Positions 23,318 to 53,159 of a stretch of 64,000 nucleotides of DNA are shown piece after piece. The notes beneath the pieces are model-generated. The model saw only the letters and a program-made list of their open reading frames with translations. It made no database searches and was not told the origin of the DNA. The position numbers and the translations under genes are program-made. The DNA comes from Patescibacteria group bacterium (lineage in GTDB: Bacteria > Patescibacteriota > Minisyncoccia > Phycocordibacterales > Phycocordibacteraceae), in the NCBI GenBank assembly GCA_040390125.1, contig JAZJYZ010000001.1, forward strand, positions 570,396 through 634,395, given 5' to 3'. Each line of letters opens with the position of its first letter. The stretch's first letter is position 1.

Positions 23318-23346
23318 GGCGATGCCTCATCGGATCCGCAGGGATC
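23318..23346 (+). ncRNA. Two-hairpin structured motif, copy A (GGCGATGCCTCATCGGATCCGCAGGGATC)
   Basis: Hairpin 1 is CGATG-cct-CATCG and hairpin 2 GATCC-gca-GGATC. Two further copies at 35319-35347 and 53131-53159 show a compensatory stem change. Confidence 0.4.
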
Positions 23347-23524
23347 ATTTAGTGTTTAGTGGCTAACGTTTAGGGAATACCCTAATCAAATTCGGAGGGA
23401 ACATTTAGAGAAAAACAAACTCTGAAAAACCCTAAGGTTTCGCCTTAAGGTGTTTAATGCTAGGGTTTAGGCGACACTTCTGATGCTTCATCCCCTGTCG
23501 AGGGTTTTTAGTGAGAAACACATT

Positions 23525-23552
23525 TCAAAAAAACCGCCTAAGGCGGGTAATT
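23525..23552 (+). terminator. Intrinsic terminator (CCGCC-taa-GGCGG + T-run)
   Basis: AAAAAAACCGCCTAAGGCGGGTAATTTT. Confidence 0.5.
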
Positions 23553-23573
23553 TTAGGCTATTTTCTAGTCTAA

Positions 23574-23804
23574 TTATTCTGCCTTGCGGGGGAAAAGTGG
23601 CTCAATCCTGGCCCTCGGCGCTTCAAATTCTGGAAGTTTTTCTGCAAGGAAAAGTGCCCCTTTCCCCACAAGTAAATGGAGAAAAGAATCAAGAGTCCTT
23701 CCTTTGATCCAAGCCACCAGGGAATCATCCATTCTGCGTTCAGCAAAAGCTCGAACCTTTTCTGAAGGAGTCTTTTGAAACTCTTGTCTATATCTTTCAG
23801 TCAT
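23574..23804 (-). CDS. Hypothetical small protein (uncertain)
   Basis: 76-aa ORF in an otherwise hairpin-rich non-coding stretch. A competing opposite-strand ORF exists. Confidence 0.25.
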   Translation of the reverse strand: MTERYRQEFQKTPSEKVRAFAERRMDDSLVAWIKGRTLDSFLHLLVGKGALFLAEKLPEFEAPRARIEPLFPRKAE

Positions 23805-23823
23805 CGTGCCTATGTTAAGTCTT

Positions 23824-23985
23824 TATTGTTCTTCAGGGTCATCTAGAATGACATGTCCTGGGATCACATCTCCTACTCTTAGTGGATGTACCACATCTTT
23901 CTTTTCCCCCTTTGGGACAACGGTACGTCCAGGAACTGGATGATCAGGCTCAAGCATTCTTTCTACTCTTTCTATTCTCGCCATA
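23824..23985 (-). CDS. Hypothetical 53-aa ORF (uncertain)
   Basis: MARIERVERMLEPDHPVPGRTVVPKGEKKDVVHPLRVGDVIPGHVILDDPEEQ, directly downstream of lysK. No obvious SD, and it is below the ORF-track cutoff. Confidence 0.25.
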
Positions 23986-24033
23986 GATTTTTTGATTTGA
24001 GTACAAGCATAATAATCCTACTATCAACAGATA

Positions 24034-25629
24034 TCAAGAAACCTCTTTGAGTCGGGAAATAACGAACTCTCTATCCAAAACACTAAGGAACCATCCTACT
24101 TTTGGTCCGTGGTCTTTACCTAAGAATGCTTGGTAAATTGCTCCGAAGAAAGCTTTGGGTTCTATTGCGTGTCGTTTTCGTATTTCATGAATTTCTGTGT
24201 GAAGGGCTAACCCGTCGAGCTTTTCATGACTCTCTATAAAACTAAGAAGATCAGCAAGTGCCTTTTTCTGCTCGGCAGATACATTCTTTGCGGAGTCAGG
24301 AACACTGTTTGTCGCAAGTGAAAACTTAAATTCGTCAGATGCTGATTTTTCTAACCAAATTTTTGCGTACTTGGCTCGAAGCTCAAGCTCTTCTCTATCA
24401 AGTGAAGTGATAGCTTCCCCTTTCAATCGAAGAATCTCAGACTCTAAATCAAGGTGTGGCATCTGTACAAGAAATGCCACTTGCGAAAAACGTGGAAGAA
24501 ATCGTTTCTTTTCTTTGAGCACTGCCCGCTCAGACGGAGCATGAATGTATTCAAAAAGCCTTGAGTCGTCGTCCACAACACCACTCCAGTATTTTTCTGC
24601 AAGCGTGTCGTACGTATCAAAGAGCACGGGAATAGTATCGCCCGCCGGGTCGAAGTTAATTTGTTGATTCATGTCTTTACCAAACAATGCAAGTCTGAAA
24701 ATTGTAGGAGGAAGCAAATCTACAACTTCTTTGGCAGAAGCTCCCTGACCTTTTGATGATGCCATCTTCTTTCCGCCCACAAGAAAAAATTCATTTGATA
24801 CTCCAAACGGTTCTGGATATTCAAACACTTCTTGTGATATGCGCCTCGCAACATCACGGGAGCCCCCTTTGGAATAATGATCCTTGCCACCTCCCTCAAC
24901 ATCAACACCAACAACTTTCCATTTCGCTGCCCAATCGAGTTTCCATAATAATTTTGCGTTTCCGTTGTACGGAGAGATAGAACCGGAATGCCCACATCCT
25001 TCGGTCCATTTCACTGCCGTAGGGTAACAAGCGTAGGTTACTTTCTCGCCGTCAAAGGCTGTCACTTTCGTTGTGCCAACCTTGCCACAGTTCTCGCAGA
25101 TGACCTGTATAGGAAACCAGTCAGCCGGACGAGGGGTGCCATACATCTCTTCATAGATCTTCCGAACAGTAGCTATTTTATCAAGTGCCATCTTGATTGG
25201 CTCATTCATTTTTCCAGAAAGATAGAGTTCGCTTGCACGATAAAACTCTGGAGTAAAGCCGGCATCATGAATCGCTTGAATGTATTCGACTGCGAAATAC
25301 TCTGCGAAATTGGAAGCTACAGCTGGGTCAGGCGATGGAATATTCAAAAGCGGTTTCCCCATGTGCTCTTTATAGACCGATTCATCTAAGTACACCGGAA
25401 GCCCGTCCATCGGGTCAAAATCATTTATCTCGTACTTAAAAACATTTGGGACACCTGCTTCTGTAAGACGCTCTGAAATGGCGGCATGAAGTGCCAAGGC
25501 TCTCATAGAGCCAACATGCACTCTGCCTGAGGCAGTTTTTTCATCACGAACGATGAGCGTGTCACCCGACGCTATTTTTTCTTTGAGCAATGTTTCTATT
25601 TGTCCGTATACCCTATCAAGCCAGAACAT
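24034..25629 (-). CDS. lysK: Lysine--tRNA ligase, class I (archaeal-type)
   Basis: 531 aa with an HVGSMR HIGH-like motif and KMASSKG (KMSKS variant). The C-terminal FLSVLDREFVISRLKE resembles class I LysRS. Confidence 0.85.
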   Translation of the reverse strand: MFWLDRVYGQIETLLKEKIASGDTLIVRDEKTASGRVHVGSMRALALHAAISERLTEAGVPNVFKYEINDFDPMDGLPVYLDESVYKEHMGKPLLNIPSPDPAVASNFAEYFAVEYIQAIHDAGFTPEFYRASELYLSGKMNEPIKMALDKIATVRKIYEEMYGTPRPADWFPIQVICENCGKVGTTKVTAFDGEKVTYACYPTAVKWTEGCGHSGSISPYNGNAKLLWKLDWAAKWKVVGVDVEGGGKDHYSKGGSRDVARRISQEVFEYPEPFGVSNEFFLVGGKKMASSKGQGASAKEVVDLLPPTIFRLALFGKDMNQQINFDPAGDTIPVLFDTYDTLAEKYWSGVVDDDSRLFEYIHAPSERAVLKEKKRFLPRFSQVAFLVQMPHLDLESEILRLKGEAITSLDREELELRAKYAKIWLEKSASDEFKFSLATNSVPDSAKNVSAEQKKALADLLSFIESHEKLDGLALHTEIHEIRKRHAIEPKAFFGAIYQAFLGKDHGPKVGWFLSVLDREFVISRLKEVS

Positions 25630-25744
25630 GTGAGCATACTAACAGAGTAAAAGCTGATTTGCTTGTGAAAATAAGTACCACGTATTAATAGTTTGCAAAT
25701 ACTTGACTTTTATTTAATTTACAATATAATATATCTAACCAATA

Positions 25745-25905
25745 TGTCAGCAGAAGCCACAATAATACGCCAGACTCAAAAAGTAGGAGACATAGAACTT
25801 CCACCCCCTATGGACGTGGTTATAAAATTTTTCGGTTCTGTCTTTACGCTCTTTTTGAAAAATACTGCAAGCCTGCTCGCAGCACCTATCACTTCCAGCA
25901 AATAA
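25745..25905 (+). CDS. Hypothetical small ORF (uncertain)
   Basis: About 53 aa from MSAEATIIRQ, followed by the bidirectional terminator AAAAGAGCCCTT-caa-GGGCTCTTTT (25921-25950). Confidence 0.25.
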
Positions 25906-25977
25906 TCCAACATAATTAAAAGAGCCCCTTCAAGGGCTCTTTTAATTATGTGGAGGTTTACCTTATAAGGTAAAAAC

Positions 25978-26286
25978 TCATTTAACTTTACGATCCAAGA
26001 TGGCAATGGTGCGTATGGTCTGAAGCGGTATAGGAAATTCGTCGATGACGATTCCATGGAATGCACCACTTCGACCATACGAAACTCGACAAACCCCTTT
26101 AGTTTCTTTTATTGTGTTTGTTCTATCAACAATATGGCGAACATAGAGCACGTCACCACTCTCTATACGAGTTCCCTGTATGAAGCCATGAGCTCGCTCT
26201 CTTCTTTCTTTCGCAAGTGCCCGGGCACGTGCAAACCTAGCGAGTCTGTCAGTTTTTAAAAAACCACTACCCACAACCTCTGTCAT
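25978..26286 (-). CDS. Hypothetical protein co-transcribed with greA
   Basis: 102 aa, starting 3 nt after the greA stop. No recognised domain. Confidence 0.4.
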   Translation of the reverse strand: MTEVVGSGFLKTDRLARFARARALAKERRERAHGFIQGTRIESGDVLYVRHIVDRTNTIKETKGVCRVSYGRSGAFHGIVIDEFPIPLQTIRTIAILDRKVK

Positions 26287-26289
26287 ACA

Positions 26290-26835
26290 CTAAGAAATCT
26301 CGATGACGGTATATTCTTGTCTTCCGTTTGGAGTTGAGAATGTGAATGTTTCGCCCTTCTTCTTACCCATCATAGCTTCACCTAGTGGAGAGAGGTGTGA
26401 AATTTTATTCTCACGCATGTTTGCCTCTTCACTTCCCACAATGGTGTAGGAATGATCACTCTTATCACCCTTTTTGCGTATTTTAATTGTGGAGCCAAAG
26501 CCCGCTGTTCCCTTTTTCTTTTCTGAAATGATGACGGCTGATTTTACAAGGTGTTCAAGCCTGCGAATGCGTTCTTCCGTTGCGGCCTGGAGTTCTCTCG
26601 CTGCTTGATACTCTGCATTTTCAGATAAATCACCAAGAGAACGAGCGTACTCAAGCCCTTCTGCGATTTCCCTTCGAGCGACGGTAATTAAACGCTCAAG
26701 CTCTGCTTTTAATTCATCAAATTTTTCTTGAGAGAGAAGATTTTGTTCTTCTGTTTGGTCGCCTTTGGCACGTGCTTTCATACTGGTATGCGTCATTGTA
26801 TCCTCCATTGTCGAAACGTCAAATCGACACAACAA
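26290..26835 (-). CDS. greA: Transcription elongation factor GreA (with N-terminal extension)
   Basis: 181 aa with the GDLSENAEYQAARE coiled-coil motif plus a C-terminal FKBP-like domain. Confidence 0.85.
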   Translation of the reverse strand: MLCRFDVSTMEDTMTHTSMKARAKGDQTEEQNLLSQEKFDELKAELERLITVARREIAEGLEYARSLGDLSENAEYQAARELQAATEERIRRLEHLVKSAVIISEKKKGTAGFGSTIKIRKKGDKSDHSYTIVGSEEANMRENKISHLSPLGEAMMGKKKGETFTFSTPNGRQEYTVIEIS

Positions 26836-26855
26836 GCTTCCGGGTTTAATTAAGT

Positions 26856-26934
26856 AGCTTTCAGCTTCCAGCTGTCAGCTGCCAGCTTTTATGAAATTAA
26901 AGCTGAAAGCTATAACCTGACAGCTGACAGCTCA
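26856..26934. repeat. Heptamer-tiled palindromic intergenic element
   Basis: AGCTTTC AGCTTCC AGCTGTC AGCTGCC AGCTTTT - atgaaatta - AAGCTGA AAGCTAT AACCTGA CAGCTGA CAGCTCA, between the mrdA 3' end and the greA start. Confidence 0.5.
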
Positions 26935-26950
26935 GAGTTAGAAGCTTTGA

Positions 26951-28672
26951 CTACTTTGTCATTTCCGGTCTTTCGGCAACCACGAAACGGAGCACCTCTC
27001 CCATTACTGAAGGTGCTCCTTGAAGAGTACCTGCTTTCGCACGCTCCATCACAACTGCAAACGCATACTTTGGATTCTCATACGGGAAAAACCCTACAAC
27101 GAGAGAATTTGTAAATTCTTTATGTGCACCAATTTCAGCGGTGCCCGTCTTTGCACCAGCGTGCACCCCGGGAACTGCGAGTGCTTGCGCAATACCTTCC
27201 GTCACTGCCAGTCGCATACCCTCCCGCACCACACGAAGATTGTCCGCACTCACTGCAACTCTTTCATGTAATCCTGTTTTTCCTGCTTCTATGACGGGAG
27301 TTACGAGCGTGCCCCCGTTTGCAATAGATGCAATTGAATGGACTAACTGCATGGGCGTAACTTGAAAACCGTATTGCCCAATCGCCGTGTGGTACGTGTT
27401 TCCAAGAAACCACCGCTCTCCATCAAACATGTTTGCCTTCCATTCCGGATTTGGAATTGTACCGAACTCTTCGCCAGCTATGGGTGCACCTGTCTCCTTT
27501 CCAAAACCAAACATGCGCATATACTTTTCAATTGCCGCAATTCCTAAGCCCGGCTGATCTTTGTAGCCCCCTCCTACTGCATAGAAATAAACATCAGAAG
27601 AAACTGCAATGGCATGCCTCACATCAGTCCAACCGTTCGCTCTCCAGTCTTTGAAGATGGTAGGTTTAGTAGGATCATAGGGATTAGGAATCGAAATGGA
27701 GCCAGTCGATAAAATTTGTTTATCAGGTGTGATAATTCGCTCTTGCAGGGCTGCGCTTGCTACGAACGGCTTCACAACGGAGCCTGGGGTATAAAGCCCA
27801 GAAACTGCCCTATCAAGAAATGGGGAACGGTCACTCGTTAAAAATTTTGCAACAGATTCTTTAGGGGTACCGCTCGACATCACTTCAGGATCAAACGATG
27901 GATAACTTACTACTGCAAGAAGTTCGCCAGTCTCTATATCCATAATCACACCAGACCCTCCACGCCAACCCGACTCCTCTGATCTATTGGCTATTGCCCC
28001 ATACAATGCTTCTTGTATTCCAGCATCAAGCGAAAGATGAATATCGGCTCCTGCTTCAGCAACACGCACCATGCTTCCTGACACTGTGTCCCCTTGTGCA
28101 TTGGTCTCTGCAATTTGAAGCCCGTTAGTACCTGCGAGTGCCGTGTTGTATAGAGATTCAATACCAATGACGCCTTCAGTTTGCTCTTGATACCAGTAGC
28201 CATTTTGATCGGCTTTCGGATACGAAACATATCCAACTACAATTGCACCAGCAGAACCCAGAGGGTAGTCTCGTGTCGTAAAAGCACTCTGCTCGTTTTC
28301 CTTGCTATCCACCGTCGAAGAAGCTACGGGGAGCATGTGCAGTGTATTTGATGCAAGTACCACACCATTCCGATCCGTAATAAGCCCACGATCAGCAATA
28401 ATAATTGAGTGTGCAAGCCGGTTTGCTTCAGCACGGGCTACGAGAGGAGCATACTGCATAACCTGCAAATTAATTAATGCCCCCGCAAAGATAATACCTA
28501 CCAGTACAACGAGTGCAAAAAACCCACGGAAGGCATTAGCGCCTACCGGTCTTTCAATTCTTCCTTCCAAACGTGAAGTGTCGAATGCAGGCAAGTTTGC
28601 AGAATCAATAAGGATTTCGTCTGGTTCGATTTCTTGATAGCGACGTCTACGATTGAAAAAGGCACGATGCAT
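26951..28672 (-). CDS. mrdA: Penicillin-binding protein 2 (elongation-specific transpeptidase)
   Basis: 573 aa with an N-terminal TM helix and SVVK (SxxK), SSD and KTGTAE motifs, directly downstream of mreBCD. Confidence 0.88.
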   Translation of the reverse strand: MHRAFFNRRRRYQEIEPDEILIDSANLPAFDTSRLEGRIERPVGANAFRGFFALVVLVGIIFAGALINLQVMQYAPLVARAEANRLAHSIIIADRGLITDRNGVVLASNTLHMLPVASSTVDSKENEQSAFTTRDYPLGSAGAIVVGYVSYPKADQNGYWYQEQTEGVIGIESLYNTALAGTNGLQIAETNAQGDTVSGSMVRVAEAGADIHLSLDAGIQEALYGAIANRSEESGWRGGSGVIMDIETGELLAVVSYPSFDPEVMSSGTPKESVAKFLTSDRSPFLDRAVSGLYTPGSVVKPFVASAALQERIITPDKQILSTGSISIPNPYDPTKPTIFKDWRANGWTDVRHAIAVSSDVYFYAVGGGYKDQPGLGIAAIEKYMRMFGFGKETGAPIAGEEFGTIPNPEWKANMFDGERWFLGNTYHTAIGQYGFQVTPMQLVHSIASIANGGTLVTPVIEAGKTGLHERVAVSADNLRVVREGMRLAVTEGIAQALAVPGVHAGAKTGTAEIGAHKEFTNSLVVGFFPYENPKYAFAVVMERAKAGTLQGAPSVMGEVLRFVVAERPEMTK

Positions 28673-28738
28673 AGATACTACTATACGTACGAAAGGGGTG
28701 AATGAAAACCCTACTTTAGACAGGTTCTTAGATGAGTT

Positions 28739-28996
28739 CTATTCCGAGAGCGTTCGGTGCAGATACCATGACAAACCTACAAGAATTAAAAAAAGCGCTG
28801 TATAGAGATACTGGAATCCCCAAAGCGGTGCCATGGGCGCACCAAACAAAACATCCATTAGTACACCACCAAGAATAAGAGTGATGTACGCTTGGAAAAG
28901 ACCAATAAGAACGATGCCAATGAGTACCGTGAGCCACCAATTCGCTACAACAGCGCTCATGAGAAATGCGACCGTAAGGCAAAGACGTAGAGTCAC
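28739..28996 (-). CDS. mreD: Rod shape-determining protein MreD-like (short)
   Basis: 85-aa polytopic membrane ORF between mreC and mrdA. The start is uncertain. Confidence 0.4.
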   Translation of the reverse strand: MTLRLCLTVAFLMSAVVANWWLTVLIGIVLIGLFQAYITLILGGVLMDVLFGAPMAPLWGFQYLYTALFLILVGLSWYLHRTLSE

Positions 28997-29754
28997 GGGG
29001 TCGAAATAATTCGAATAAAATCAAGTTCCGCAAAAGAAAATGGCAATGCAACCCGAACTTTTTGCGACACGTCACGTGCCTCAAAAGCAACACTCTGAAC
29101 AGTACCTAAAATTAAGGATTCAGTTCCGGGGAACCGCACAACATCGCCAACTACCACTTCCACACCCTGTGGCACAGAGAGTTCAAATGCACCACCACCC
29201 AAACCCTTCGCCACTGCGACCGCAGAAGGCTCGCCTAAAATAACATCTGCCGAGACACCTGCACTCGAAAACAAACTCACTACTGCGGTTGTAGTGTCTG
29301 CCGTGATTACACGCCCTAAAGCGACTCCTTCATACACCGCCATATCATTTTGATGTACTCCACTATCCTGCCCTATATCGATAATAAGCGTATCGTAATT
29401 AGTTTGAGGAGGTCGTGCGATAACACGACCCGTGCTCCCTGAAGAAACTGCTCGAGCTCCTACAGATTTTCTTAAGTTTTCATTTTCACGAACAAGAAGA
29501 CTGTACAGTAGTGATTGATAGGCAATGCGATTCAAATCGGCATCCGCAACACTCAAACGTGCGATGAGTGCATCTTTTGAAAGTGCACTGTACTCTCCAC
29601 TCGTTACACGAGGCGCTACTATAGTTTCAAAAATTCCCCGAGCGTATGAGCCAATATTCGAACCGAAAAAAAATAGAAGGACTAAACATCCAAGCGCAAA
29701 AGCGCCTAGAAGTAGACGAAGAAACCAATTAGAATCCTGCGAGCGCCCCATCAT
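28993..29754 (-). CDS. mreC: Rod shape-determining protein MreC
   Basis: 253 aa with an N-terminal TM helix, coiled coil and beta-rich C-terminal half, overlapping mreB by 26 nt. Confidence 0.7.
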   Translation of the reverse strand: MMGRSQDSNWFLRLLLGAFALGCLVLLFFFGSNIGSYARGIFETIVAPRVTSGEYSALSKDALIARLSVADADLNRIAYQSLLYSLLVRENENLRKSVGARAVSSGSTGRVIARPPQTNYDTLIIDIGQDSGVHQNDMAVYEGVALGRVITADTTTAVVSLFSSAGVSADVILGEPSAVAVAKGLGGGAFELSVPQGVEVVVGDVVRFPGTESLILGTVQSVAFEARDVSQKVRVALPFSFAELDFIRIISTP

Positions 29755-30790
29755 CGTCGTCTACTAATACTGAGCGATATTTTGCAACGTCTTCAAGAAC
29801 AATTCCGGTACCTCGAACCACAGTAGTCAGTGGGTCGTCTACGACATGAATCGGTACTTTAAGCTCGGCCGCTAACAATTCAGGGAGTCCACGCAAAAGC
29901 GCCCCTCCACCGGTAAGAAAAATACCAAGACGCATAACATCCGAAACGACTTCAGGAGGTGCCGTTTCAATAACCTCTTTTATAGCTTCAACAATAGAAG
30001 AAACTGACGAACCAATTGCCTCACGTATGTCTGCATCTGTAATGACAATTTCACGAGGCAACCCCGTAACGAGGTCACGCCCACGAATGTGTGTCTCTAA
30101 CGCCACAGGAAGTTTAAGTGCAGAGCCTACTGCAACCTTGACGTCCTCAGCCGTTCGCTCGCCTATCAGTATTTTAAATTCACTGCGTATATAGCTTGCA
30201 ATGTCATCATTCAACACATCTCCTGCAATACGAATATTCTTTGCACGCACAATGCCACCCAAAGACATCAACGCAATGTCGGTTGTACCTCCTCCAATAT
30301 CAACGAGCATGCTTCCAACGGCACTCTCAACTGGAAGCCGTGCTCCCAAAGCTGCCGCCATTGGCTCTTCAATAATGAACACTTCACGTGCACCCGCATT
30401 CCTCGCAGCGTCTCGGACAGCACGAATCTCTACATTCGTAATGCCTGATGGCACACCAATGACCACTCGAGGCCCCAGTGGCATGCGTTCCGTGTGCGCC
30501 TTCTGCAAAAGATATGTGAGCATTTCTTCAGTCACTTCGAAATCAGAAATTACACCTTCAACGAGAGGCCGAACAGCAACAATGTGCGTCGGTGTTCTGC
30601 CTATCATGTCTCTTGCCGCTGCACCGACCGCAACTACCTGCCCCGTTTTTTGATTCAACGCAACAACCGATGGTTCGGTAATAACAATGCCCTTGCCTTT
30701 AAGATAGACGAGGGTGTTGGCGGTGCCGAGATCGATGCCAATGTCCTTCGAGAACCGTTCAGTTATTTTTCGAGGGATTCTAAAAGCCAT
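29729..30790 (-). CDS. mreB: Rod shape-determining protein MreB
   Basis: 353 aa; IGIDLGTANTLVY and the actin-like ATPase motifs. Confidence 0.92.
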   Translation of the reverse strand: MAFRIPRKITERFSKDIGIDLGTANTLVYLKGKGIVITEPSVVALNQKTGQVVAVGAAARDMIGRTPTHIVAVRPLVEGVISDFEVTEEMLTYLLQKAHTERMPLGPRVVIGVPSGITNVEIRAVRDAARNAGAREVFIIEEPMAAALGARLPVESAVGSMLVDIGGGTTDIALMSLGGIVRAKNIRIAGDVLNDDIASYIRSEFKILIGERTAEDVKVAVGSALKLPVALETHIRGRDLVTGLPREIVITDADIREAIGSSVSSIVEAIKEVIETAPPEVVSDVMRLGIFLTGGGALLRGLPELLAAELKVPIHVVDDPLTTVVRGTGIVLEDVAKYRSVLVDDDDGALAGF

Positions 30791-32033: not shown

Positions 32034-32111
32034 TTCACCTCACAGTATAGCTAATAAAGCCTTACTCCAAAACTAGCGTTTTGAAGAGCTGATGTAGGGG
32101 TTATAAGATAC

Positions 32112-33173: not shown

Positions 33174-33190
33174 ACTGTTCTGATCTAAAT

Positions 33191-35225: not shown

Positions 35226-35318
35226 AGCGATTTCTTTAGAATAACACCATTATCTTGGGACAAAATAAATGCCCCTATCTCCGAACGGAGGCAGGGGCGA
35301 GGAATATCAGGGTACCTT

Positions 35319-35347
35319 GATCCCTTCGGATCCGATGAGGCATCGCC
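35319..35347 (-). ncRNA. Two-hairpin structured motif, copy B, in the proA leader
   Basis: Minus-strand reading is GGCGATGCCTCATCGGATCCGAAGGGATC. A hairpin with T-tail follows at 35266-35300 (GCCCCTGCCTCCGTTCGGAGATAGGGGC atttatttt), 40 nt before the proA start. Confidence 0.4.
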
Positions 35348-35581
35348 TTTTTTTGTTCTCCGCGCTCCTGTCTTCCGACTGACACGCTTTAGGAGTTTTT
35401 CACGGTTTCCTTTTCCGTCACACTTATATCCTCGAGGGAATTTCGTGTGCAGCTCGTCTGGCTGGGTACCAAACTCAAACGCTTTTATTCAACTCTTTAA
35501 ATCGTAACAAATGATGAAGATTTGTCAAGCGTTAGCAATGCCATCTCTTTGCTCTCACTGCACACAAACAAATAAAAACAA

Positions 35582-36670: not shown

Positions 36671-36678
36671 ATGAGTAG

Positions 36679-36750
36679 GTGTCAGGTTACAGGTTCTAGC
36701 TTTCAGCTTGTAATTCTAACCTAGAACCTAGCACCTAGCACCTAAAACCT
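36679..36750. repeat. Heptamer-tiled palindromic element (AGGTTMY / ACCTAGM variant)
   Basis: AGGTTAC AGGTTCT AGCTTTC AGCTTG - taattcta - ACCTAGA ACCTAGC ACCTAGC ACCTAAA ACCTC, between frr and rseP. Confidence 0.45.
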
Positions 36751-38540: not shown

Positions 38541-38767
38541 ATTTGGAGAAGTTTGCAGTTTGGTAACTAGAAGCTGAAAGCTGGCAGCTGAAAGCTTGAA
38601 TTCCTAGAGCTTGCCTAAAAACCCGCGGTACCCAAGCCGAAACCTTTCATTTTCGTCATGAGACATGAGTCGGAGCCCGCAATGTACGGAGAGTACATTG
38701 CGGGCGAGACGAAATGTCGAGTAGAAAATGAAAGATTTCTAGGCAGGGGGAGGTTTTTAGGCAAGCT

Positions 38768-41658: not shown

Positions 41659-41676
41659 AACTATGGGGTTATTTAA

Positions 41677-41868: not shown

Positions 41869-41875
41869 ATAATCT

Positions 41876-42322: not shown

Positions 42323-42403
42323 AGATAGCAGGCATCAATGACCGCCAACCCCAACACCCGCAAGGGTGTTTTTGATTTGATATATCAAACCACTCTCATT
42401 ATT

Positions 42404-42425
42404 GTGCTACACCCGGGTGTAGCAC
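42404..42425. repeat. Perfect 22-bp palindrome GTGCTACACCCGGGTGTAGCAC (copy 2)
   Basis: Identical to 38519-38540, between the two tail-anchored paralogs. Confidence 0.6.
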
Positions 42426-42492
42426 AATTTACTTTTCCCGTTATAGAAATTGACAAAAGAATCGTACGGAGTACAACATCAAAAGAAAGATT

Positions 42493-42966: not shown

Positions 42967-43009
42967 GCGTTAAGGCTTTCCAAAATCCAAAACAAATATC
43001 TTGGATTTT

Positions 43010-44284: not shown

Positions 44285-44311
44285 TGAAGCCTATTGTACA
44301 CGAAGCGAGCT

Positions 44312-44383
44312 AGAAGGTTCTAGAGTTTAGATGCTAGCTTTTCCTACCAAAAGCTGGAAGCTGACAGCTGAAACCTGTAAGCT
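44312..44383. repeat. Heptamer-tiled palindromic element in the murA/priA divergent region
   Basis: ...TAGAGTTTAG ATGCTAGC TTTTCC - taccaa - AAGCTGG AAGCTGA CAGCTGA AACCTGT AAGCT. Confidence 0.45.
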
Positions 44384-44389
44384 AATATC

Positions 44390-46324: not shown

Positions 46325-46382
46325 AAAAATAAGAAGCGTAAGCGACTATATTTTTGTTAACCCCGTTAAATCCTTTCAAATC

Positions 46383-46658
46383 ATGAGTACGTTCTGCTAT
46401 GTATACGTCCTCCGATCAAAGAAAGATGGCAAATTCTATACGGGATATACCCAAGATTTGAAAGGACGATTTGAGGCGCACCAAAAAGGACGAGTAGGTT
46501 CAACACAAAATCGCAGACCGTTTACGCTTATTTACTCCGAGGCGTGCCTGGATCGTCGGGATGCAATGAAAAGGGAGCGCTATTTGAAAACTCACCACGG
46601 CAAGTTATTCTTACATAGTCGCCTCAAATCGTATTTAACAGGGTGTAAGATTCAGTAA
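46383..46658 (+). CDS. GIY-YIG nuclease family protein (URI domain, 91 aa)
   Basis: YVYVLRSKKDGKFYTGYTQDLKGRFEAH fits the GIY...YxG...R...E pattern. The gene lies between inverted-repeat ends AACCCCGTTAAAT (46359) and ATTTAACAGGGTG (46634). Confidence 0.8.
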   Translation: MSTFCYVYVLRSKKDGKFYTGYTQDLKGRFEAHQKGRVGSTQNRRPFTLIYSEACLDRRDAMKRERYLKTHHGKLFLHSRLKSYLTGCKIQ

Positions 46659-46689
46659 AACGTATGAGCGAATATGAATAAGCTGAACG

Positions 46690-46757
46690 TAACCCCGTTA
46701 AATCCCGCCAAGCGGGACGCTCGAATGCGAGCGTATTTAACAGGGTGTAAGATTTCC
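46690..46757. mobile_element. ORF-less derivative of the GIY-YIG element (MITE-like)
   Basis: TAACCCCGTTAAATCC + 27-nt two-hairpin filler + GTATTTAACAGGGTGTAAGATT. It carries the same 5' leader and the same ORF 3' end as the full copy, immediately downstream of it. Confidence 0.55.
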
Positions 46758-46787
46758 TAACTCGCTTCGCTCGCAACAAAATCTAAC

Positions 46788-47333
46788 ATGATTGACCCAA
46801 TTGTTCTCAAAGGCGCAAAAATCCTCAAACAAAAAATGAAGGAAGTACCAAAAAGCCTTTTTGGTACGGCAGAGCTTAGGGACATCATTGCTCGTATGTC
46901 TCTCTCCTTAAGAGACACCAAACATGGTGTTGCCATAGCCGCAAATCAAATAGGTATTCCCTACCGCATTTTCGTCGTACGTGGATTCGTACTCGAAAAC
47001 AAAGAGAGGAATGACCCAGCAACATTGACGGAGGACGATGAAGACAGAGCATTCATTAATCCTAAAATCGTCAAAATTTCCAGGAAAAAAGAACTCATGG
47101 ATGAAGCGTGTCTTTCTGTACCAGAGTTTCACGGCACCATAAAGCGAGCACTTCAAGCAACAGTTCGTGCATACGACATTGAAGGGATCCGCTTTGAGCG
47201 AGGCGGTAGCGGACTTTTAGCACAAATCTTTCAGCATGAAACCGACCACCTCGAAGGAATTCTCTATGTAGACAAAGCAGTAGAAGTACTTAAAGTGAAA
47301 GAAGAGAGCGAGATACAAAAAGAAGAAAAATAA
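46788..47333 (+). CDS. def: Peptide deformylase
   Basis: 181 aa with GVAIAANQIG, EACLSVP and QHETDHLEG motifs. Confidence 0.9.
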   Translation: MIDPIVLKGAKILKQKMKEVPKSLFGTAELRDIIARMSLSLRDTKHGVAIAANQIGIPYRIFVVRGFVLENKERNDPATLTEDDEDRAFINPKIVKISRKKELMDEACLSVPEFHGTIKRALQATVRAYDIEGIRFERGGSGLLAQIFQHETDHLEGILYVDKAVEVLKVKEESEIQKEEK

Positions 47334-47390
47334 AAACACACGAGCCCTATACGATTAATCGTATATGGCTGGTAACTCGTTGAAAATTGC

Positions 47391-48263
47391 ATGGCACAAA
47401 AAATACAAAAAAGTAAACTACGGATAGTATTTTTTGGAACCCCAAACTTTACTACCTTCGTACTTGATGAACTTGAAAGTGCTGGGATTCTTCCAGCACT
47501 TATTGTGACAGTTCCTGATAAACCCGCTGACCGTGGACTCGCACTCAAAGCATCTCCCGTTAAAATCTGGGGCGAGGAGCGAAACATCGATGTGCTTCAG
47601 CCTGAGAGATTAGACTCGTCAGACCCATCGGCGGATACCATTTTAAACAGCGAGTGGGATATGTTTATTGTTGCAGGATATGGAAAACTGTTACCGGCGT
47701 CCCTTCTCTCAATTCCCAAGCATGGCACGCTGAACGTGCACCCATCTCTCTTACCTAAATTCCGTGGCCCTTCGCCTATCGAAACTCAAATTTTGTCAGA
47801 CGCAAAAGAAGTAGGTGTCTCCATTATTCTTCTCGATGAAGAAACTGATCACGGCCCCATACTTGCACAAGCTTCCATCACTCCCGAGCCGTGGCCATTC
47901 AGAAGAAACATGCTTGAGGACTTGCTGTGGCACGAGGGGGGTAAACTGCTTGCCGAGTCGATTCCACTCGTTGTGGACGGCTCACTTACGGCAGAGCCAC
48001 AAAATCACACGGAAGCCACCTTCACCCCTAAACTAAAAAAAGAAGACGGGCTTATTGATCTCACGGCCGATGCGTACCAAAACTATCTCAAATTCTGTGC
48101 CTATGAAGGCTGGCCGGGCACGTACTTTTTCGTAACACGAGGAGATAAAGACATACGTATCAAAATTATTGATGCAAAATACGAGGATGGCACATTCACC
48201 CCAACTCGCATCATCCCCGAAGGAAAAAAAGAAATGGACTATTCAGACTTCGAGCGTCCTTAA
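47391..48263 (+). CDS. fmt: Methionyl-tRNA formyltransferase
   Basis: 290 aa; formyltransferase N-domain plus a C-terminal Fmt domain, downstream of def. Confidence 0.9.
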   Translation: MAQKIQKSKLRIVFFGTPNFTTFVLDELESAGILPALIVTVPDKPADRGLALKASPVKIWGEERNIDVLQPERLDSSDPSADTILNSEWDMFIVAGYGKLLPASLLSIPKHGTLNVHPSLLPKFRGPSPIETQILSDAKEVGVSIILLDEETDHGPILAQASITPEPWPFRRNMLEDLLWHEGGKLLAESIPLVVDGSLTAEPQNHTEATFTPKLKKEDGLIDLTADAYQNYLKFCAYEGWPGTYFFVTRGDKDIRIKIIDAKYEDGTFTPTRIIPEGKKEMDYSDFERP

Positions 48264-48309
48264 TCCCCAATTCTTAAGATATTTCGAATAAACCCCCTGT
48301 ATAGTATAA

Positions 48310-48365
48310 AATCACGACCGTGATTTTATACTATACAGGGGTTTTCGCATTCCACAGTACAGTTC
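48310..48365. terminator. Bidirectional terminator, 23-bp perfect-stem hairpin
   Basis: AAACCCCCTGTATAGTATAAAATCACG-ac-CGTGATTTTATACTATACAGGGGTTTTCG. A second hairpin CCCGAGAT-ttca-ATCTCGGG + T-run lies at 48418-48450. It sits between convergent fmt and ORF 48461. Confidence 0.65.
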
Positions 48366-48460
48366 ACTTCACATTCCACAAAAATAAAACACTGGAATGA
48401 CATCAGGTGTTTAAAAAATCCCGAGATTTCATCTCGGGATTTTTTTAATAAATGTTTTTC

Positions 48461-48784
48461 TTAAGAATTATCGGGACCGAAAACTCGATTTAATGCTCCT
48501 GCAAACACTGTGCCCAAAATCTGATTTGCATCTAAAGGTTGACCCGGTCTTTCGCTACCTTTCCCTCTTTTTACCACTCCACTGTAAATGCCAACACGAT
48601 ACTTTCTCGGGATAGAATTTCTAGTACGTCTTACGCGATAAAAAGGTTCATCGTTTTTACTGTCACTGTCAAATACCATTCTTTCTTTAACAACAGCCGG
48701 CTGCCAATCATTTGGAAAGTCCTTAACCCAGACTCTTGCTCCTGGAGCGAACTCATTTCCTCCTAAACCTTCTTTTCTCGGCAT
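48461..48784 (-). CDS. Hypothetical protein
   Basis: 107-aa ORF, no recognised domain. Confidence 0.35.
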   Translation of the reverse strand: MPRKEGLGGNEFAPGARVWVKDFPNDWQPAVVKERMVFDSDSKNDEPFYRVRRTRNSIPRKYRVGIYSGVVKRGKGSERPGQPLDANQILGTVFAGALNRVFGPDNS

Positions 48785-48844
48785 AATTTGAACTTTACGT
48801 TAAGGTTTCAATTATAGATATTTTAAGTAAAAAAGCAAGGAGGG

Positions 48845-50167
48845 TTATAAATATTCTCTTGTTAGGTTGCGAATGCCATTGTTTGTAACGAGTACATCGT
48901 CTTCAATGCGAACGCCTCCGTAGGGAGCAATGCGGTCGATGAGTTCCCAGTTGAAGTGTGTGGATGTAGTACCGCTTCGGTGGGGGTGGAGGAGCATTTC
49001 TATAAAATATACTCCTGGCTCTACCGTGAACACCTGCCCTTCTTTTATTACATTTGTGTTTCTAAGCTCTGGAGTTTTCTTACTTCCTACGTCGTGAACC
49101 TGAAGTCCGAGCATGTGTCCTACACCGTGCGGAAAAAATACTTTGGTAAGCCCCAGCTTCACAGCTTCTTTTCCATCAACCGTGAGAATGCCGAGTGAAA
49201 AAAGTAAGTTTCCAATTTTGAGGTGTGCTTCTTTCTGTAGCTCTTCAAAGGAGAGTCCTGGCTTCACTAACGCACATAGTTCTTGCTGTAATTCTTCAAC
49301 CCCCTGAAGAAGTGCGGTGAAAAGTGAATCGACGTGCGGTGCTACAAATGTACGTGTGACATCCGACGCATACCCGAGACAGCTCGCTCCTGCGTCAAGA
49401 AGGAGTGACGCACCATTTCGCACCTCTCTCCGCTTGCCTTGATAATGCAGAGTCGCACCTTTTTCATTCAACGCCACAATAGTTTCATATGGTAATTCCC
49501 TTTCCACACAAGCGACTGCCTTCATATATGCTTGATGAATTTCAAGCTCCGATGCACCAGCAAGAAATACTTCACGAGCACCCTTGTGTCCCACCGACGC
49601 AATCCTATTTGCCTCGCTAATACAGGCAATCTCATACGGGGTCTTATGACTCCTCTCGATATCCAAGCGAGCGAGGAGCTCTTTCGGGTTGACACAATCC
49701 TTCCCAATCCCTTGTTTTTTTATCTCTTCCGAATTATCTCCAACATACGCAATTCTTCCAATGTTGGGTTTCGTAAACCCAACATTGAGTTCTTTCCAGG
49801 CGGAGTCGGCAGTGGATACTTCAATAAGTTCAAACTCGGAAAGCCAAAAAGATTTACCCTGAGCACTGTCGAACGGGTCGGCAAGAGAGGCTTGCTCATG
49901 CCAATAATCATCAAGCTTCACGCAAATGAGGGTAGGCTTTACATCCGGTCGTATTAAAAGAAAATTACCCGGTTCGTTTAAGGGAGCCCAGTGAGCGAAA
50001 TGCGGGTACGTACGAAACGGAGCATCCTGGTCATCAGCGAAGTAGCGAAGAGGGGTGCCTGAATAGATAATGAGTGCATCAAACCCCGTCGCTAAAAGTG
50101 CATCTTCTGTTTGTCGTTGTCGCTCACTAATGTGAGCAGAATAGAGAGAAAGAATCTCGTCTTTCAT
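48845..50167 (-). CDS. Xaa-Pro aminopeptidase/dipeptidase (M24B family)
   Basis: 440 aa; HGVGHMLGLQVHDVG and a pita-bread fold metal-ligand pattern, with an N-terminal creatinase-like domain. Confidence 0.85.
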   Translation of the reverse strand: MKDEILSLYSAHISERQRQTEDALLATGFDALIIYSGTPLRYFADDQDAPFRTYPHFAHWAPLNEPGNFLLIRPDVKPTLICVKLDDYWHEQASLADPFDSAQGKSFWLSEFELIEVSTADSAWKELNVGFTKPNIGRIAYVGDNSEEIKKQGIGKDCVNPKELLARLDIERSHKTPYEIACISEANRIASVGHKGAREVFLAGASELEIHQAYMKAVACVERELPYETIVALNEKGATLHYQGKRREVRNGASLLLDAGASCLGYASDVTRTFVAPHVDSLFTALLQGVEELQQELCALVKPGLSFEELQKEAHLKIGNLLFSLGILTVDGKEAVKLGLTKVFFPHGVGHMLGLQVHDVGSKKTPELRNTNVIKEGQVFTVEPGVYFIEMLLHPHRSGTTSTHFNWELIDRIAPYGGVRIEDDVLVTNNGIRNLTREYL

Positions 50168-50538
50168 GAACCACCAAATCCTCGGAAAAAATCTTTCACT
50201 TTTGCAGCACCACGACGCACGAGGTCACGCTTTCGTCCTATTTTCTTTCTAAGTTCAGCTCTAGCTTCCGCCACAGCAACCTCTATAGCCTTATGCATAG
50301 TTTCTCGTGTTGCTTCTGAGCGAACAAAACCACCCGGATACTGCAAATTGATTTCTGCACGATATACCTCGCCTGTTTTCTGACCACCAACGCTCGTACC
50401 AAGCTCAATATCAACAAGAGATTCATCTTTAGAATTAATGAGCTGCTCAAACTTGCGTGCTTTGCTTTCAACGAATTCACGGAGCTCACTGGTAAGAACA
50501 ATAGAGCCTGACGTTTTAAGATTTATTTGCATACCCAT
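50164..50538 (-). CDS. hpf: Ribosome hibernation promoting factor / RaiA family
   Basis: The ORF opens at 50619 and the probable start is MGMQINLK. The sequence is YfiA/HPF-like. Confidence 0.8.
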   Translation of the reverse strand: MGMQINLKTSGSIVLTSELREFVESKARKFEQLINSKDESLVDIELGTSVGGQKTGEVYRAEINLQYPGGFVRSEATRETMHKAIEVAVAEARAELRKKIGRKRDLVRRGAAKVKDFFRGFGGS

Positions 50539-50800
50539 ATACTTGTAGCATTTTAACTCGTAAATGATGCCCTCGGATAATGTGGACTGCTTTCTCCGGC
50601 AAACCAAGATGCCGAGCAACGAGTGCTATCGCACGTGCATTCGCTCTATTGCCCTCTGCAGACTCCTTAACACTAACCTCCAGTGTCCTCCGCTTACCTT
50701 CATACACACCTTCCTTTTTACTATCCGGTGTAACACGGATACGGATAAGGACGGGTTCAGTGGGGGCGTTCATATCGTCCAATAAGCTCCGCAGACTCAA
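50516..50800 (-). CDS. DUF167 (YggU) family protein
   Basis: 94 aa; IRIRVTPDSKKEG...LEVSVKESAEGNRANARAIALVARHLGLPEKAVHIIRG matches the DUF167 pattern. Confidence 0.6.
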   Translation of the reverse strand: MSLRSLLDDMNAPTEPVLIRIRVTPDSKKEGVYEGKRRTLEVSVKESAEGNRANARAIALVARHLGLPEKAVHIIRGHHLRVKMLQVYGYANKS

Positions 50801-51233
50801 GTACGTGCCCGTGTATTGCCCTTTCGACCTCTACTCGTGTCGCCCCCTCGAAAAGTTCAAGCATTCGATCAAGTGCATAGAGTTTGAAGAAATACCTGTG
50901 CTCCCGATCGGGCGGGCACGGTCCCAAGTAAGAAGCACTTCCATGGGTATTGTTTCCTTGAATACCCGGTGGAGTCGCACCATCTTCAATCTCTACCGCC
51001 CCACTAGCTGGGGACGGGATATCAAAGACTACCCAATGATCGATGACGTCGACATGAAGTCTATCCTTTACCGACTGAGGAATGTCGGGGTCGTCCATAA
51101 TGAGCACGAGCGATTTGGCACCCTCTGGGGTTCCACGGAAAGAAAGTGCAGGACTCGTGTTCTCGCCGTCGCAGGTGTACGCCTGAGGAATGAGGGCATT
51201 TTCTTTAAAACGTGTGCTGGAGATTGTAAGCAT
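50757..51233 (-). CDS. YbhB/YbcL family Raf-kinase-inhibitor-like (PEBP) protein
   Basis: 158 aa with the GPCPP...HRYFF PEBP signature. Confidence 0.8.
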   Translation of the reverse strand: MLTISSTRFKENALIPQAYTCDGENTSPALSFRGTPEGAKSLVLIMDDPDIPQSVKDRLHVDVIDHWVVFDIPSPASGAVEIEDGATPPGIQGNNTHGSASYLGPCPPDREHRYFFKLYALDRMLELFEGATRVEVERAIHGHVLESAELIGRYERPH

Positions 51234-51334
51234 AATCCGATGAACCTATTGTAACCTTTGAATACTAAAATCGAACAGGTCGCAAAAGCGACCTGTTCGA
51301 TTTTTAGAGCCTAGAACCTCTGCTTGTGTTACTT

Positions 51335-52114
51335 TCAGAAGTTAAAATGGAAACGATTCTTGAAAGATTCGAATCTCTCTCTGAACGTTTTGTGTCCATT
51401 TATATCCTCACGCACTATCGTGATTTTGGTAGCAGTGAACGTTTTTGTGCTTACATCATACGTGCCTGCAACTTTTGCTTTGTCGTTCGCGAGTATTGCT
51501 CCGAATGCAAGAGCAACATCGCCATTAGTTATGACCGAGTTCGTTGCAAGTTTTACAGTGATGACACCTTCAGAACCACCAGTTGCAAGTGTGAACTTAA
51601 GATTCGGAGTATCGATACTCTGTACAGTGCCCGCAAACGCTACTGGCTTTACGCCTGTACCTGAGTTTGACCAATCTTTAACTGACTTAGCGTCAACAGT
51701 AAGCCCTGAAGTGCTTGTGTTAAGCATACCTCCGAAACTTATGTAATCACCAACAGCAATGCGAGAAAGCACAGTGGAACCGTCTTCCCGATGTGCGAAT
51801 TTAGTATCTGCACTGGTTCGTATGCTCCATGAGAGCACAGTGGAGCCAAATGCTGTTTGCGCATTGATAACTGAACCGGATACGCTCGTGACTTTTGCAC
51901 CACGAACCATCACTTGCCCATTGTCATCAATGCGGACTTCTAATGTCGAGCCGACGCTACGATGGTCTGATTTTTTTTCCCTATCATTATTATCGTTATC
52001 ATTGTTAGCAGAAGCAAGCAGGGGCGCTATAAATAAAGCACTTACTGCAAGAACTGCTATAGAGAGGAAAATACCGAGACGAGATGAAAGAGTGTACATA
52101 ATTAAGATGTGCAC
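51335..52114 (-). CDS. Secreted hypothetical protein (Asn/Asp-rich linker, beta-rich repeats)
   Basis: 259 aa with a signal peptide/TM and an NNDNDNND low-complexity stretch. Confidence 0.45.
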   Translation of the reverse strand: MHILIMYTLSSRLGIFLSIAVLAVSALFIAPLLASANNDNDNNDREKKSDHRSVGSTLEVRIDDNGQVMVRGAKVTSVSGSVINAQTAFGSTVLSWSIRTSADTKFAHREDGSTVLSRIAVGDYISFGGMLNTSTSGLTVDAKSVKDWSNSGTGVKPVAFAGTVQSIDTPNLKFTLATGGSEGVITVKLATNSVITNGDVALAFGAILANDKAKVAGTYDVSTKTFTATKITIVREDINGHKTFRERFESFKNRFHFNF

Positions 52115-52219
52115 GCATGTGCGTGTCTATTAAGGTTAACGGCCTGATACCAGACCTAATTCTTATGACGTACGAGCCCTTCTGATCTTACTCAAAACAC
52201 TCTATTCTATACACAGTAC

Positions 52220-53077
52220 TTACTGCACTGCCTTAATATCAGCAAGAAGACTCTCAGTTGCTTTCCGTGATGCTTGCGCAAAGTCCGCTCCACTCGATGC
52301 AAAAATAATTCCTCGAGATGAGTTTATGATGAGCCCTTTTCCATTTTGATCTCTACCTGCCAACACTGCTTTTTCTACATCGCCCCCTTGTGCACCAATT
52401 CCAGGAACAAGTATCGGCATGTCAGGAGCGAGTGTGCGCATTGTTGCAAGCGTCTCGGGACTCAGACCACTTCCGACGAGTCCACAGTTACCATGAGTAT
52501 TCCACGTAACTGTGGTGCGAACCACTTTTTCCCAAAGGTGTTCACCTCCATCAAGAACACTGTTCTGAAAATCGCCTGCACCAGGGTTCGAAGTTTTTGC
52601 AAGAACAAAAATTCCTTTATCCTTTCTTTCGAGAAATGGCTCCAGTGCATCGTGCCCAAGATACGGATTGACGGTAACAGCGTCCGCACCAAGCTCATCA
52701 AAGACAGCTCGAGCATACGCTTCACTCGTTGAACCAATGTCAGCACGCTTGGCGTCAAGGATTACAGGGATGCCATCATAGTGCTCTTTGATGTAGCTAA
52801 TGGTCCGCTTTAAAGCACGCATCCCTGCTTCCCCTTCAGCTTCATAAAAAGCGATGTTTGGTTTATACGCGCACACAAGGTCTGCGGTCGCATCTATTAT
52901 TTCAGAGTTAAAAACGAATAGCAGTTCTTCAACAGAGGGATTTTCTTTCTTGAGGACTTCAGGAATTCCTGAAACAACTGGGTCAAGTCCAACGCAAACC
53001 ATTCCAATCTGCGACCAGCGATTTTGTAGTTTTTCGGTAAACGTTGTGTTCTTCATGTAAGAACCATAATACTGCAC
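52220..53077 (-). CDS. pyrF: Orotidine 5'-phosphate decarboxylase (type 2)
   Basis: 285 aa; DAKRADIGSTSEAY (DxKxxDI) and TIM-barrel OMPdecase motifs. Confidence 0.82.
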   Translation of the reverse strand: MQYYGSYMKNTTFTEKLQNRWSQIGMVCVGLDPVVSGIPEVLKKENPSVEELLFVFNSEIIDATADLVCAYKPNIAFYEAEGEAGMRALKRTISYIKEHYDGIPVILDAKRADIGSTSEAYARAVFDELGADAVTVNPYLGHDALEPFLERKDKGIFVLAKTSNPGAGDFQNSVLDGGEHLWEKVVRTTVTWNTHGNCGLVGSGLSPETLATMRTLAPDMPILVPGIGAQGGDVEKAVLAGRDQNGKGLIINSSRGIIFASSGADFAQASRKATESLLADIKAVQ

Positions 53078-53130
53078 TCACGATTAAAACAAAAACCCGC
53101 CTCAGGCGGGTTTTTGTTTTGGAGCTTCCT

Positions 53131-53159
53131 GTTCCCCACGGAACCGATGAAGCATCGCC
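53131..53159 (-). ncRNA. Two-hairpin structured motif, copy C, in the pyrF leader
   Basis: Minus-strand reading is GGCGATGCTTCATCGGTTCCGTGGGGAAC. The second stem GTTCC/GGAAC is a compensatory variant of GATCC/GGATC. A terminator CCCGCC-tgag-GCGGG + T-run follows at 53095-53120. Confidence 0.4.

Follow-up and report, generated by a model that had tools for sequence, protein, structure and literature searches.

A 64,000-nt stretch of Patescibacteria DNA, referred to below as the window, carries three copies (A, B and C) of a 29-nt motif of two adjacent hairpins. We found that they are members of a family of dispersed intergenic cassettes of 33-34 nt with the consensus (T)TA-GGCGAYGCYTCRTCGGNTCCGNAGGGANC-AT, which has not been described before and whose hosts are a group of uncultivated groundwater bacteria. 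The existence of the family, the structure of the cassette, the covariation within its stems, its indifference to context and its presence or absence as a discrete block are established. The original prediction, made from the window alone, had proposed a structured repeat family, a protein-binding hairpin pair or a new small cis-regulatory RNA upstream of proA, pyrF and mraZ. The first proposal is borne out by about 50 more copies in public genomes and metagenomes, and none of proA, pyrF and mraZ has a dedicated regulator in the cassette. Instead, it is probably a dispersed, structure-constrained repeat resembling the repetitive extragenic palindromic (REP) elements, which a trans-acting factor would recognise when it is folded and single-stranded.

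Retrieval and covariation of the cassette family

A degenerate pattern of the motif, allowing up to three mismatches, was run over the window and over 100 shuffles of it as a control. Its sole matches in the window are copy A (23318..23346, + strand, GGCGATGCCTCATCGGATCCGCAGGGATC), copy B (35319..35347, - strand, GGCGATGCCTCATCGGATCCGAAGGGATC) and copy C (53131..53159, - strand, GGCGATGCTTCATCGGTTCCGTGGGGAAC), where the chance expectation is 0.00, and all three are identical in position and strand to the predicted 29-mers. When the whole window was searched with a covariance model and the filters switched off, the same copies were matched at 50-55 bits (55.4, 53.4 and 50.6 bits for A, B and C, respectively). 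The one additional match, to a hairpin-1 fragment at 23482-23492, is partial and scores 11.3 bits. Each copy folds on its own, as had been described, into two abutting 5-bp hairpins, CGATG-CYT-CATCG and GNTCC-GNNG-GGANC, with folding energies of approximately -10 kcal/mol as RNA and of -6 to -9 kcal/mol as DNA of either strand. The double change from A-T to T-A in copy C is real. Finally, the motif belongs to no Rfam family: searching the whole window against Rfam 15 at gathering thresholds detected tRNA-Glu alone and nothing on the motif, and permissive scans (E up to 10) around A, B and C returned terminator-type noise that left the motif unmatched.

Two larger scans retrieved further members of the family. 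Scan 1 covered the GTDB species genomes, with hairpin 2 left free at its loop and its two inner pairs, and yielded 20 loci, 18 of which are from Parcubacteria/Paceibacterota-type metagenome-assembled genomes (MAGs); its hosts include Greene0714_7, FW305_bin.14, SO_2017_GW3_33, Gw_Eff_bin_311 and two genomes labelled Saccharibacteria. Two Desulfobacterales matches (L003, L007), which lie inside a long open reading frame (ORF) and show no pairing, were left out as chance coding matches. Scan 2 covered JGI metagenomes, with the three inner pairs of hairpin 1 left free, and added 29 loci, nearly all of them from Parcubacteria/Paceibacterota MAGs; among their sources is a contig of 316 kb that carries at least 10 copies. 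Neither of the scanned collections contains the window. De-duplication left 49 unique copies, to which a few degenerate ones found by the model can be added. In the groundwater Paceibacteria/Parcubacteria clade of the candidate phyla radiation (CPR) the cassette reaches a density of approximately one copy per 20-30 kb; these copy numbers are lower bounds, since exact-pattern matches were counted. A scan of viral contigs gave 0 matches, and a phage origin was rejected. We found no relevant description of REPs, of structured RNAs or of T-boxes in the literature on CPR bacteria.

The retrieval patterns fixed many positions, so that the diversity we observe is a lower bound and invariance is established at the free positions alone. 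At such free positions, pair 17-28 is A-T, T-A or G-C, with a single G-T, pair 18-27 is T-A or C-G, and pair 6-12 is T-A in 13 cases, C-G in 13 and non-Watson-Crick in 5. Pairs 4-14 and 5-13, on the other hand, show no variation. Within the loops, G21, A23 and G24 are invariant and N22 and Y9 are variable. Across 47 distinct sequences 98.9% of the cells are paired, and double-sided changes are found at three pairs, in a total of 30 cells. The observed covariation was reached by none of 500 shuffles, and sliding the 3' partners lowers the pairing to 23-60%. The claim that selection acts on structure rather than on sequence is thus strongly supported by the covariation at these three pairs across about 50 copies. 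None of the outcomes named beforehand as speaking against the prediction occurred: there are further copies, they covary, and no Rfam family matches. Moreover, some orthologous copies differ by exactly one compensatory pair, in hairpin 2 for L012/L042 versus L044 and in hairpin 1 for L001 versus L039. Stem and loop variants occur in all combinations, and some copies have decayed, such as the one at L015:3867-3901, whose ortholog in L019 is intact.

Were the two arms of pair 6-12 independent, about half of the copies would be expected to be hybrids. The 26 concordant versus 5 hybrid cases therefore argue for base pairing and against a dimeric protein that binds the duplex, and the strict co-variation of the arms indicates that it is the folded single strand that matters. 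A test for the strand was uninformative, as the wobble intermediates comprise two G.U pairs (sense) and two A.C pairs (antisense). Two ideas about the sequence itself were rejected. A mini-ORF starting at the AUG of hairpin 1 is incompatible with the CGACG/CGTCG variants, approximately 40% of the copies, which do not have the AUG. The resemblance of CCGUAGGGAAC to helix 45 of the 16S rRNA was judged coincidental, as the majority variant and the pairing both differ. As a side observation, positions 20-24 read C-G-N-A-G in all copies. C-GNA-G is a very stable form of DNA mini-hairpin; in the cassette its register is one base off the covarying 5-bp stem and would bulge a G.

Gain, loss and heptamer arrays

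Relatives whose flanking sequences are 88-96% identical differ in the presence or absence of the cassette. The filled site in L041 and the empty one in L004 differ by exactly ATAGGCGACGCTTCGTCGGATCCGAAGGGATCAT, a 34-nt block between the units TTAGTGG^TTAGCGT that has no duplicated flank and whose ends, ATAGG... and ...ATCAT, do not form an inverted repeat. A miniature inverted-repeat transposable element (MITE) was rejected on these grounds. Likewise, L015 is filled and L022 empty inside one shared array, and L043 has one copy more than L034. The window and its relative L046, whose RseP and Frr are 88% and 85-87% identical, respectively, carry the cassette at different sites. The frr-rseP spacer of L046 holds a cassette followed directly by a 23S_rRNA_IVP gene and (CCCTAAA)4, whereas the same site in the window holds a heptamer hairpin alone. 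This 23S_rRNA_IVP gene (PF05635, L046:159-518, +), which encodes a four-helix bundle, runs with its last codons into (CCCTAAA)4 and has no counterpart at the frr-rseP site of the window. Such genes were also seen at L024 and at L014:6151-6531; an association of the cassette with them was rejected, as it concerns 2 loci only.

In addition to full cassettes there are partial tandem copies, which start at position 7, do not have GGCGAY and come 1-4 nt after a full cassette (L005:3790-3815, L025:6490-6575, L031:10913-10939, L045:4766-4792 and L022:1567-1595). With a partial copy of this kind present, the 5' arm of hairpin 1 can choose between two partners. In L025 the partial units, nested or in tandem, number three.

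The flanks of the cassette are also conserved. Among 24 copies, an A is found at -1 in 24 and a T at -2 in 20; on the downstream side an A follows in 23 and a T comes next in 17. Upstream, TAG recurs at positions -9 and -16, keeping the phase of the junction TA|G. Such in-phase TAGs with a period of 7 are found upstream of 31 of the 49 copies, and a heptamer-type flank lies downstream of 13. At several loci the upstream TTAGNGN units and a complementary downstream array can close a long stem around both hairpins (z = -4.9, -3.1 and -6.6). In related genomes TTAGNGN arrays come directly after stop codons and the complementary arrays directly before start codons.

The window itself contains thirteen tandem arrays with a period of 7, all of them intergenic, with units such as AGCTTTC, AAAGCTG, AACCTAG, TCTACCT and GAGTTCA; they include those at 264-297, 17428-17460, 18077-18110, 21259-21363, 22635-22667, 22701-22734, 26856-26932, 36718-36750, 38571-38596 and 44350-44383. 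Two arrays often form an inverted pair, which would fold into a long hairpin. In most units at least one strand carries a stop codon, so that three units in a row place stops in all three frames. At 22614-22688 (-) a GAGTTCA array encodes the first approximately 25 codons of the ORF called as rsmH (ENSELGTLNSELSTHS); the true start codon of rsmH probably lies downstream of this array, which would make it intergenic.

Genomic context of the family and of the window copies

All 49 unique copies lie between ORFs, as defined by simple ORF calls. With respect to the flanking genes, 19 are sense to both and 15 antisense to both, and a few are mixed. The neighbours are unrelated housekeeping genes, including cysS, prfB, ftsE, secD, folD, dnaX, rnc, pth and lepB, and no gene recurs beside the cassette, orthologous loci aside. 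A regulon was therefore rejected, as the neighbouring genes share no function; with mixed orientation and an incoherent set of genes, the family does not behave as a gene-specific cis-regulatory RNA. Nor is the cassette an intrinsic terminator: it is followed by AT(T)TAG, with no run of Ts. A canonical terminator is found within 130 nt downstream of 6 of 28 sense copies. We thus rejected a terminator as the regular partner of the cassette, and the association with terminators in the window is not a property of the family. Two further candidates concern orientation. The GC skew is negative throughout the window and the copies are oriented +, - and -, so that orientation changes without a change in the sign of the skew, which speaks against a marker of the replication strand of the Ter or KOPS type. 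Inverted copies flanking a cargo gene were considered for L031 and rejected, as housekeeping genes alone lie between the copies.

Copy B lies in the rseP-proA spacer, and within it appears to sit inside a T-box-like leader, at the position of stem III. The leader (35262..35494, - strand; fold z = -2.6) has a promoter-like TTGACA-16-TACGAT at 35528-35501, a short stem I with the loop GGUACCCAGCC, a degenerate T-box core, AAGGUACCCUG, and a terminator hairpin at 35298-35271 with a T-run to 35262. Downstream of it are proA, proC, proB and a class II aminoacyl-tRNA synthetase gene (ProRS-/proS-like). The orthologous spacer in L046 (L046:1680-1886, +) is free of the cassette. It matches the T-box family RF00230 with 29.9 bits (E = 4e-5), which is below the gathering score of 93. 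Its core, AGGGUGGUACCGCG, is canonical, it possesses both an antiterminator and a terminator, and the loop GGUACCCAGCC of its very short stem I holds proline codons (CCC/CCA). The leader of the window aligns to that of L046 up to the position of stem III, which is occupied by an ordinary hairpin in L046 and by the cassette in the window. No antiterminator could be drawn for the window leader, and we found no report of T-boxes in CPR bacteria in the literature. Copy B is without the usual TA...AT and heptamer flanks. Its placement inside such a leader offers a natural experiment on what a T-box-like leader tolerates.

Copy C starts 15 nt past the stop codon of a gene for a SWIB-domain protein (53175-53432, PF02201) and ends 15 nt ahead of an intrinsic terminator (53086..53115, - strand, AAAAACCCGCCTGAGGCGGGTTTTTGTTTT; region z = -4.05). 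It belongs to the 3' untranslated region (UTR) of the SWIB gene, and the terminator ends the SWIB transcript and is not part of the cassette. The placement of B and C in the 5' leaders of proA and pyrF thus holds for B and fails for C. The terminator-like hairpins reported after both copies are present, the one after B being that of the T-box-like leader and the one after C that of the SWIB gene.

Copy A does lie upstream of mraZ, as had been noted, in a spacer of 330 nt and 120 nt from the mraZ start. Its strand, however, is opposite to that of mraZ and of all neighbouring genes, so that it is antisense to both genes that flank it, mraZ and a 76-aa ORF. TTAGNGN heptamers come directly after it (23347..23378, + strand, ATTTAGTG TTTAGTGG CTAACG TTTAGGG) and end in a small TTAGGG/CCCTAA hairpin. 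The same spacer also contains a further element at 23470..23503 (+ strand, GGCGA-cacttct-GATGCTTCATC-CCCTgtcgAGGG) with the flanks tagggttta and tttttagtg. It gives the partial model match, retains hairpin 1 and has a different 4-bp hairpin in place of hairpin 2. On this weak evidence it is a probable degenerate fourth copy.

Other features near the window copies were recorded as well. Directly upstream of mraZ, at 23205-23290 (-), four AAGTGG(G/C)(G/A) boxes surround a -10-like element, TGTCATATAAT; boxes of this form define MraZ sites, and the region is probably the MraZ operator and dcw promoter. Two small ORFs between lysK and mraZ, at 23574-23804 (-, 76 aa) and 23823-23984 (-, 53 aa), are without a Pfam match and are followed by a bidirectional terminator at 23534-23546. 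A stand-alone gene for a 91-aa GIY-YIG nuclease (PF01541) is present at 46383-46658 (+); no link to the cassette was found.

Alternative explanations and known systems

Its indifference to orientation, its unrelated neighbours and its gain and loss as a block speak for the cassette being a dispersed repeat of the REP kind, and against a gene-specific riboregulator. In the account that we consider probable, the cassette, whenever single-stranded, folds into its two abutting 5-bp hairpins, be it as DNA or as RNA and from either strand. The stems are kept by compensatory change and the loops C-Y-T and G-N-A-G in sequence, and a trans-acting protein would recognise the folded form; the conserved loops suggest such a reader. 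The cassette is gained and lost as a discrete block without target-site duplication, usually in phase within TTAGNGN arrays near stop or start codons. Recognition of the single strand, an agent that copies the cassette and any benefit for the host are inferred. The mechanism we favour, if only tentatively, is copying of the hairpin element from single-stranded DNA by a putative nuclease, in a REP-like or IS200/IS605-like manner.

Several observations weigh against this account. By the lower-bound counts the genomes contain tens of copies, as opposed to the hundreds typical of REPs, and among the copies no inverted doublets were seen, only direct partial tandems. Neither a transposase nor an HUH nuclease was detected: a tblastn search with IS200 TnpA and the REP-associated tyrosine transposase (RAYT) YafM gave nothing below E = 0.2 in the 442 kb that it covered, which is short of whole genomes and makes this a weak negative. 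The near-identity of the cassette across species and its fixed loop bases would fit a function for the host equally well. Finally, the cassette is polar, since, irrespective of the strand of the genes, its 5' side is the one closer to a gene in 27 of 31 co-directional intergenic regions, and this polarity together with the proximity to stop codons could reflect a role as RNA.

An RNA role of this type would amount to generic punctuation of transcripts: the transcribed hairpins would bind an RNA-binding protein or block a nuclease, thereby stabilising or processing mRNA ends past stop codons. They might also replace a structural stem, as in the T-box-like leader, and antisense copies would be inert or act in antisense transcripts. 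The positions of the sense copies fit such a role, with a median of 21 nt past the upstream stop codon (range 3-46, one at 234) and 16 of 17 copies closer to that stop than to the next start. B, C and several other copies lie ahead of terminators, copy B stands in for stem III in a T-box-like RNA, the loop bases are conserved and there are G.U-type intermediates (L049, L031). However, approximately 40% of the copies have both neighbouring genes on the opposite strand, even in intergenic regions of only about 100 nt, and these copies are as intact as the sense ones and are retained between species (L008/L016, L013/L027). In addition, the wobble intermediates fit the antisense strand as often as the sense strand, the canonical terminators are confined to the minority of sense copies given above, and gain and loss at orthologous sites are frequent. 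We consider generic RNA punctuation unlikely.

Somewhat less likely still is a spread without any enzyme, by ectopic gene conversion or by template-switching during replication between TTAGNGN arrays. Here the symmetry of the stems would arise from intrastrand repair in extruded hairpins and not from selection. Such a spread would explain the heptamer arrays on one or both sides with the cassette in phase, the junction at a unit boundary without target duplication and the very fast turnover of the intergenic regions. The occurrence of all combinations of stem and loop variants is what recombination among copies predicts, and the frequent partial tandems from position 7 point to slippage. Nevertheless, B, C, L017, L018 and L035 have no flanking arrays that could serve as homology. 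Moreover, the loops should drift without selection, yet G21, A23 and G24 are fixed, and the 29-nt core is nearly identical across species, whereas the heptamers vary freely.

We regard it as very improbable that the cassette is a double-stranded DNA site at which a nucleoid-associated or global regulatory protein binds a pair of adjacent palindromic operators. Copies that are orientation-independent and intergenic, number tens per genome and often lie within approximately 100 nt of a start codon would suit such a site, and Watson-Crick stems make both strands equivalent. But the half-sites change together, as seen from the few hybrids at pair 6-12 and the three Watson-Crick types of pair 17-28; the neighbouring genes are without a common function, and copies are also found at the 3' ends of genes and within a leader RNA.

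The gene-specific riboswitch- or attenuator-like RNA for proA, pyrF and mraZ, for which the positions of B and C upstream of proA and pyrF and ahead of terminator hairpins had spoken, is already contradicted and has next to no probability left: the terminator downstream of B is part of a T-box-like leader, which in a close relative is cassette-free; C comes after the stop codon of the SWIB gene, and A is on the strand opposite to mraZ; the orthologous spacers of relatives are without copies, few copies have terminators, and members of the family adjoin dozens of unrelated genes, in either orientation. This case shows that a riboregulator cannot be deduced from compensatory change between the three copies of a single window alone.

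More speculatively, and with a low probability in our view, the cassette and the arrays might be the trace of an undescribed CPR system for building and remodelling intergenic regions, in which a protein reads the folded module, with its conserved loop of the C-GNA-G type, and either copies it into TAG-phased heptamer arrays or uses it to punctuate transcripts in general. If it copies the module, the cassette would be a minimal mobile unit of 33 nt with a new kind of mobilising enzyme; punctuation would suit organisms whose intergenic regions are very short and which have few canonical terminators. How selfish DNA, the stability of mRNA and the plasticity of genomes are viewed in model bacteria has been shaped by REP-type families. 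To our knowledge, nothing comparable has been described for CPR bacteria, whose genomes are tiny and are thought to be nearly repeat-free. The cassette provides a handle for finding the protein that reads it, and a strain-level marker in groundwater metagenomes.

The closest resemblance is to REP elements and to the hairpin ends of IS200/IS605-type elements, with several defining features of each either missing or impossible to score. REPs, with their BIME and REPIN arrangements and the RAYT (TnpA_REP), are known from Enterobacteria and Pseudomonas. Each consists of one imperfect palindrome, 20-40 nt long, that has a conserved 5' GTAG; a genome contains hundreds of them, which are commonly arranged in inverted doublets, and the cognate gene for the RAYT/Y1 nuclease is often flanked by the repeats. 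Like REPs, the cassette is approximately 30-35 nt long, strictly extragenic and hairpin-forming, is found in both orientations and often just past stop codons, shows compensatory stem changes and no target duplication, and can be co-opted into 3' structures of mRNAs. Where REPs have one long imperfect palindrome, however, the cassette has a pair of abutting 5-bp hairpins whose loops are conserved; it has the conserved flanks TA and AT instead of a 5' GTAG, and comes as single units or direct partial tandems embedded in heptamer arrays.

With the ends of IS200/IS605 elements and of derived palindrome-associated elements, which move as single strands by 'peel and paste', the cassette would share hairpin-dependent recognition, the absence of target duplication, a short conserved adjoining sequence, here ...TA, and an orientation fixed to the target strand, which here would be the TAG strand of the array; the target of the cassette is inseparable from the end of the element. 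The cassette differs in that the whole unit is 33-34 nt long and has no distinct left and right ends, and neither TnpA nor TnpB of the IS200/IS605 type was detected in the 442 kb, which is a weak test. MITEs such as Correia/NEMIS are likewise small, non-coding, intergenic and polymorphic between strains; the cassette has neither their terminal inverted repeats nor a TA target duplication and is 3-5 times shorter. TIGR arrays consist of tandem units with conserved repeats and variable spacers and adjoin tas genes (PMC12045711). Arrays of the TIGR or CRISPR type were rejected, as the copies of the cassette are single, without variable spacers and without an associated gene.

With respect to the T-box RNAs (RF00230), copy B would take the place of stem III between the stem II region and the core and supply the hairpins there, and the cassette is not a part of that family. 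The flanking arrays, finally, have relatives of their own. The short tandemly repeated repetitive (STRR) sequences of cyanobacteria are intergenic tandem repeats of heptamers. TAACTGA heptamer repeats are found in intergenic regions of Beggiatoaceae, Cyanobacteria and Bacteroidetes (PMC4679880). The TAACTGA repeat of Beggiatoaceae is the nearest analogue of the flanking arrays, and not of the cassette; the thirteen arrays of the window come closest to this repeat and to the cyanobacterial STRR sequences. Like the STRR and TAACTGA repeats, the arrays are intergenic, consist of 7-nt units in 2-6 or more copies with stop codons inside, and often lie directly upstream of starts, beside genes of all functions. 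Unlike them, they comprise several heptamer families per genome, commonly form inverted pairs that would fold into long hairpins, and include one family, TTAGNGN, that hosts the cassette.

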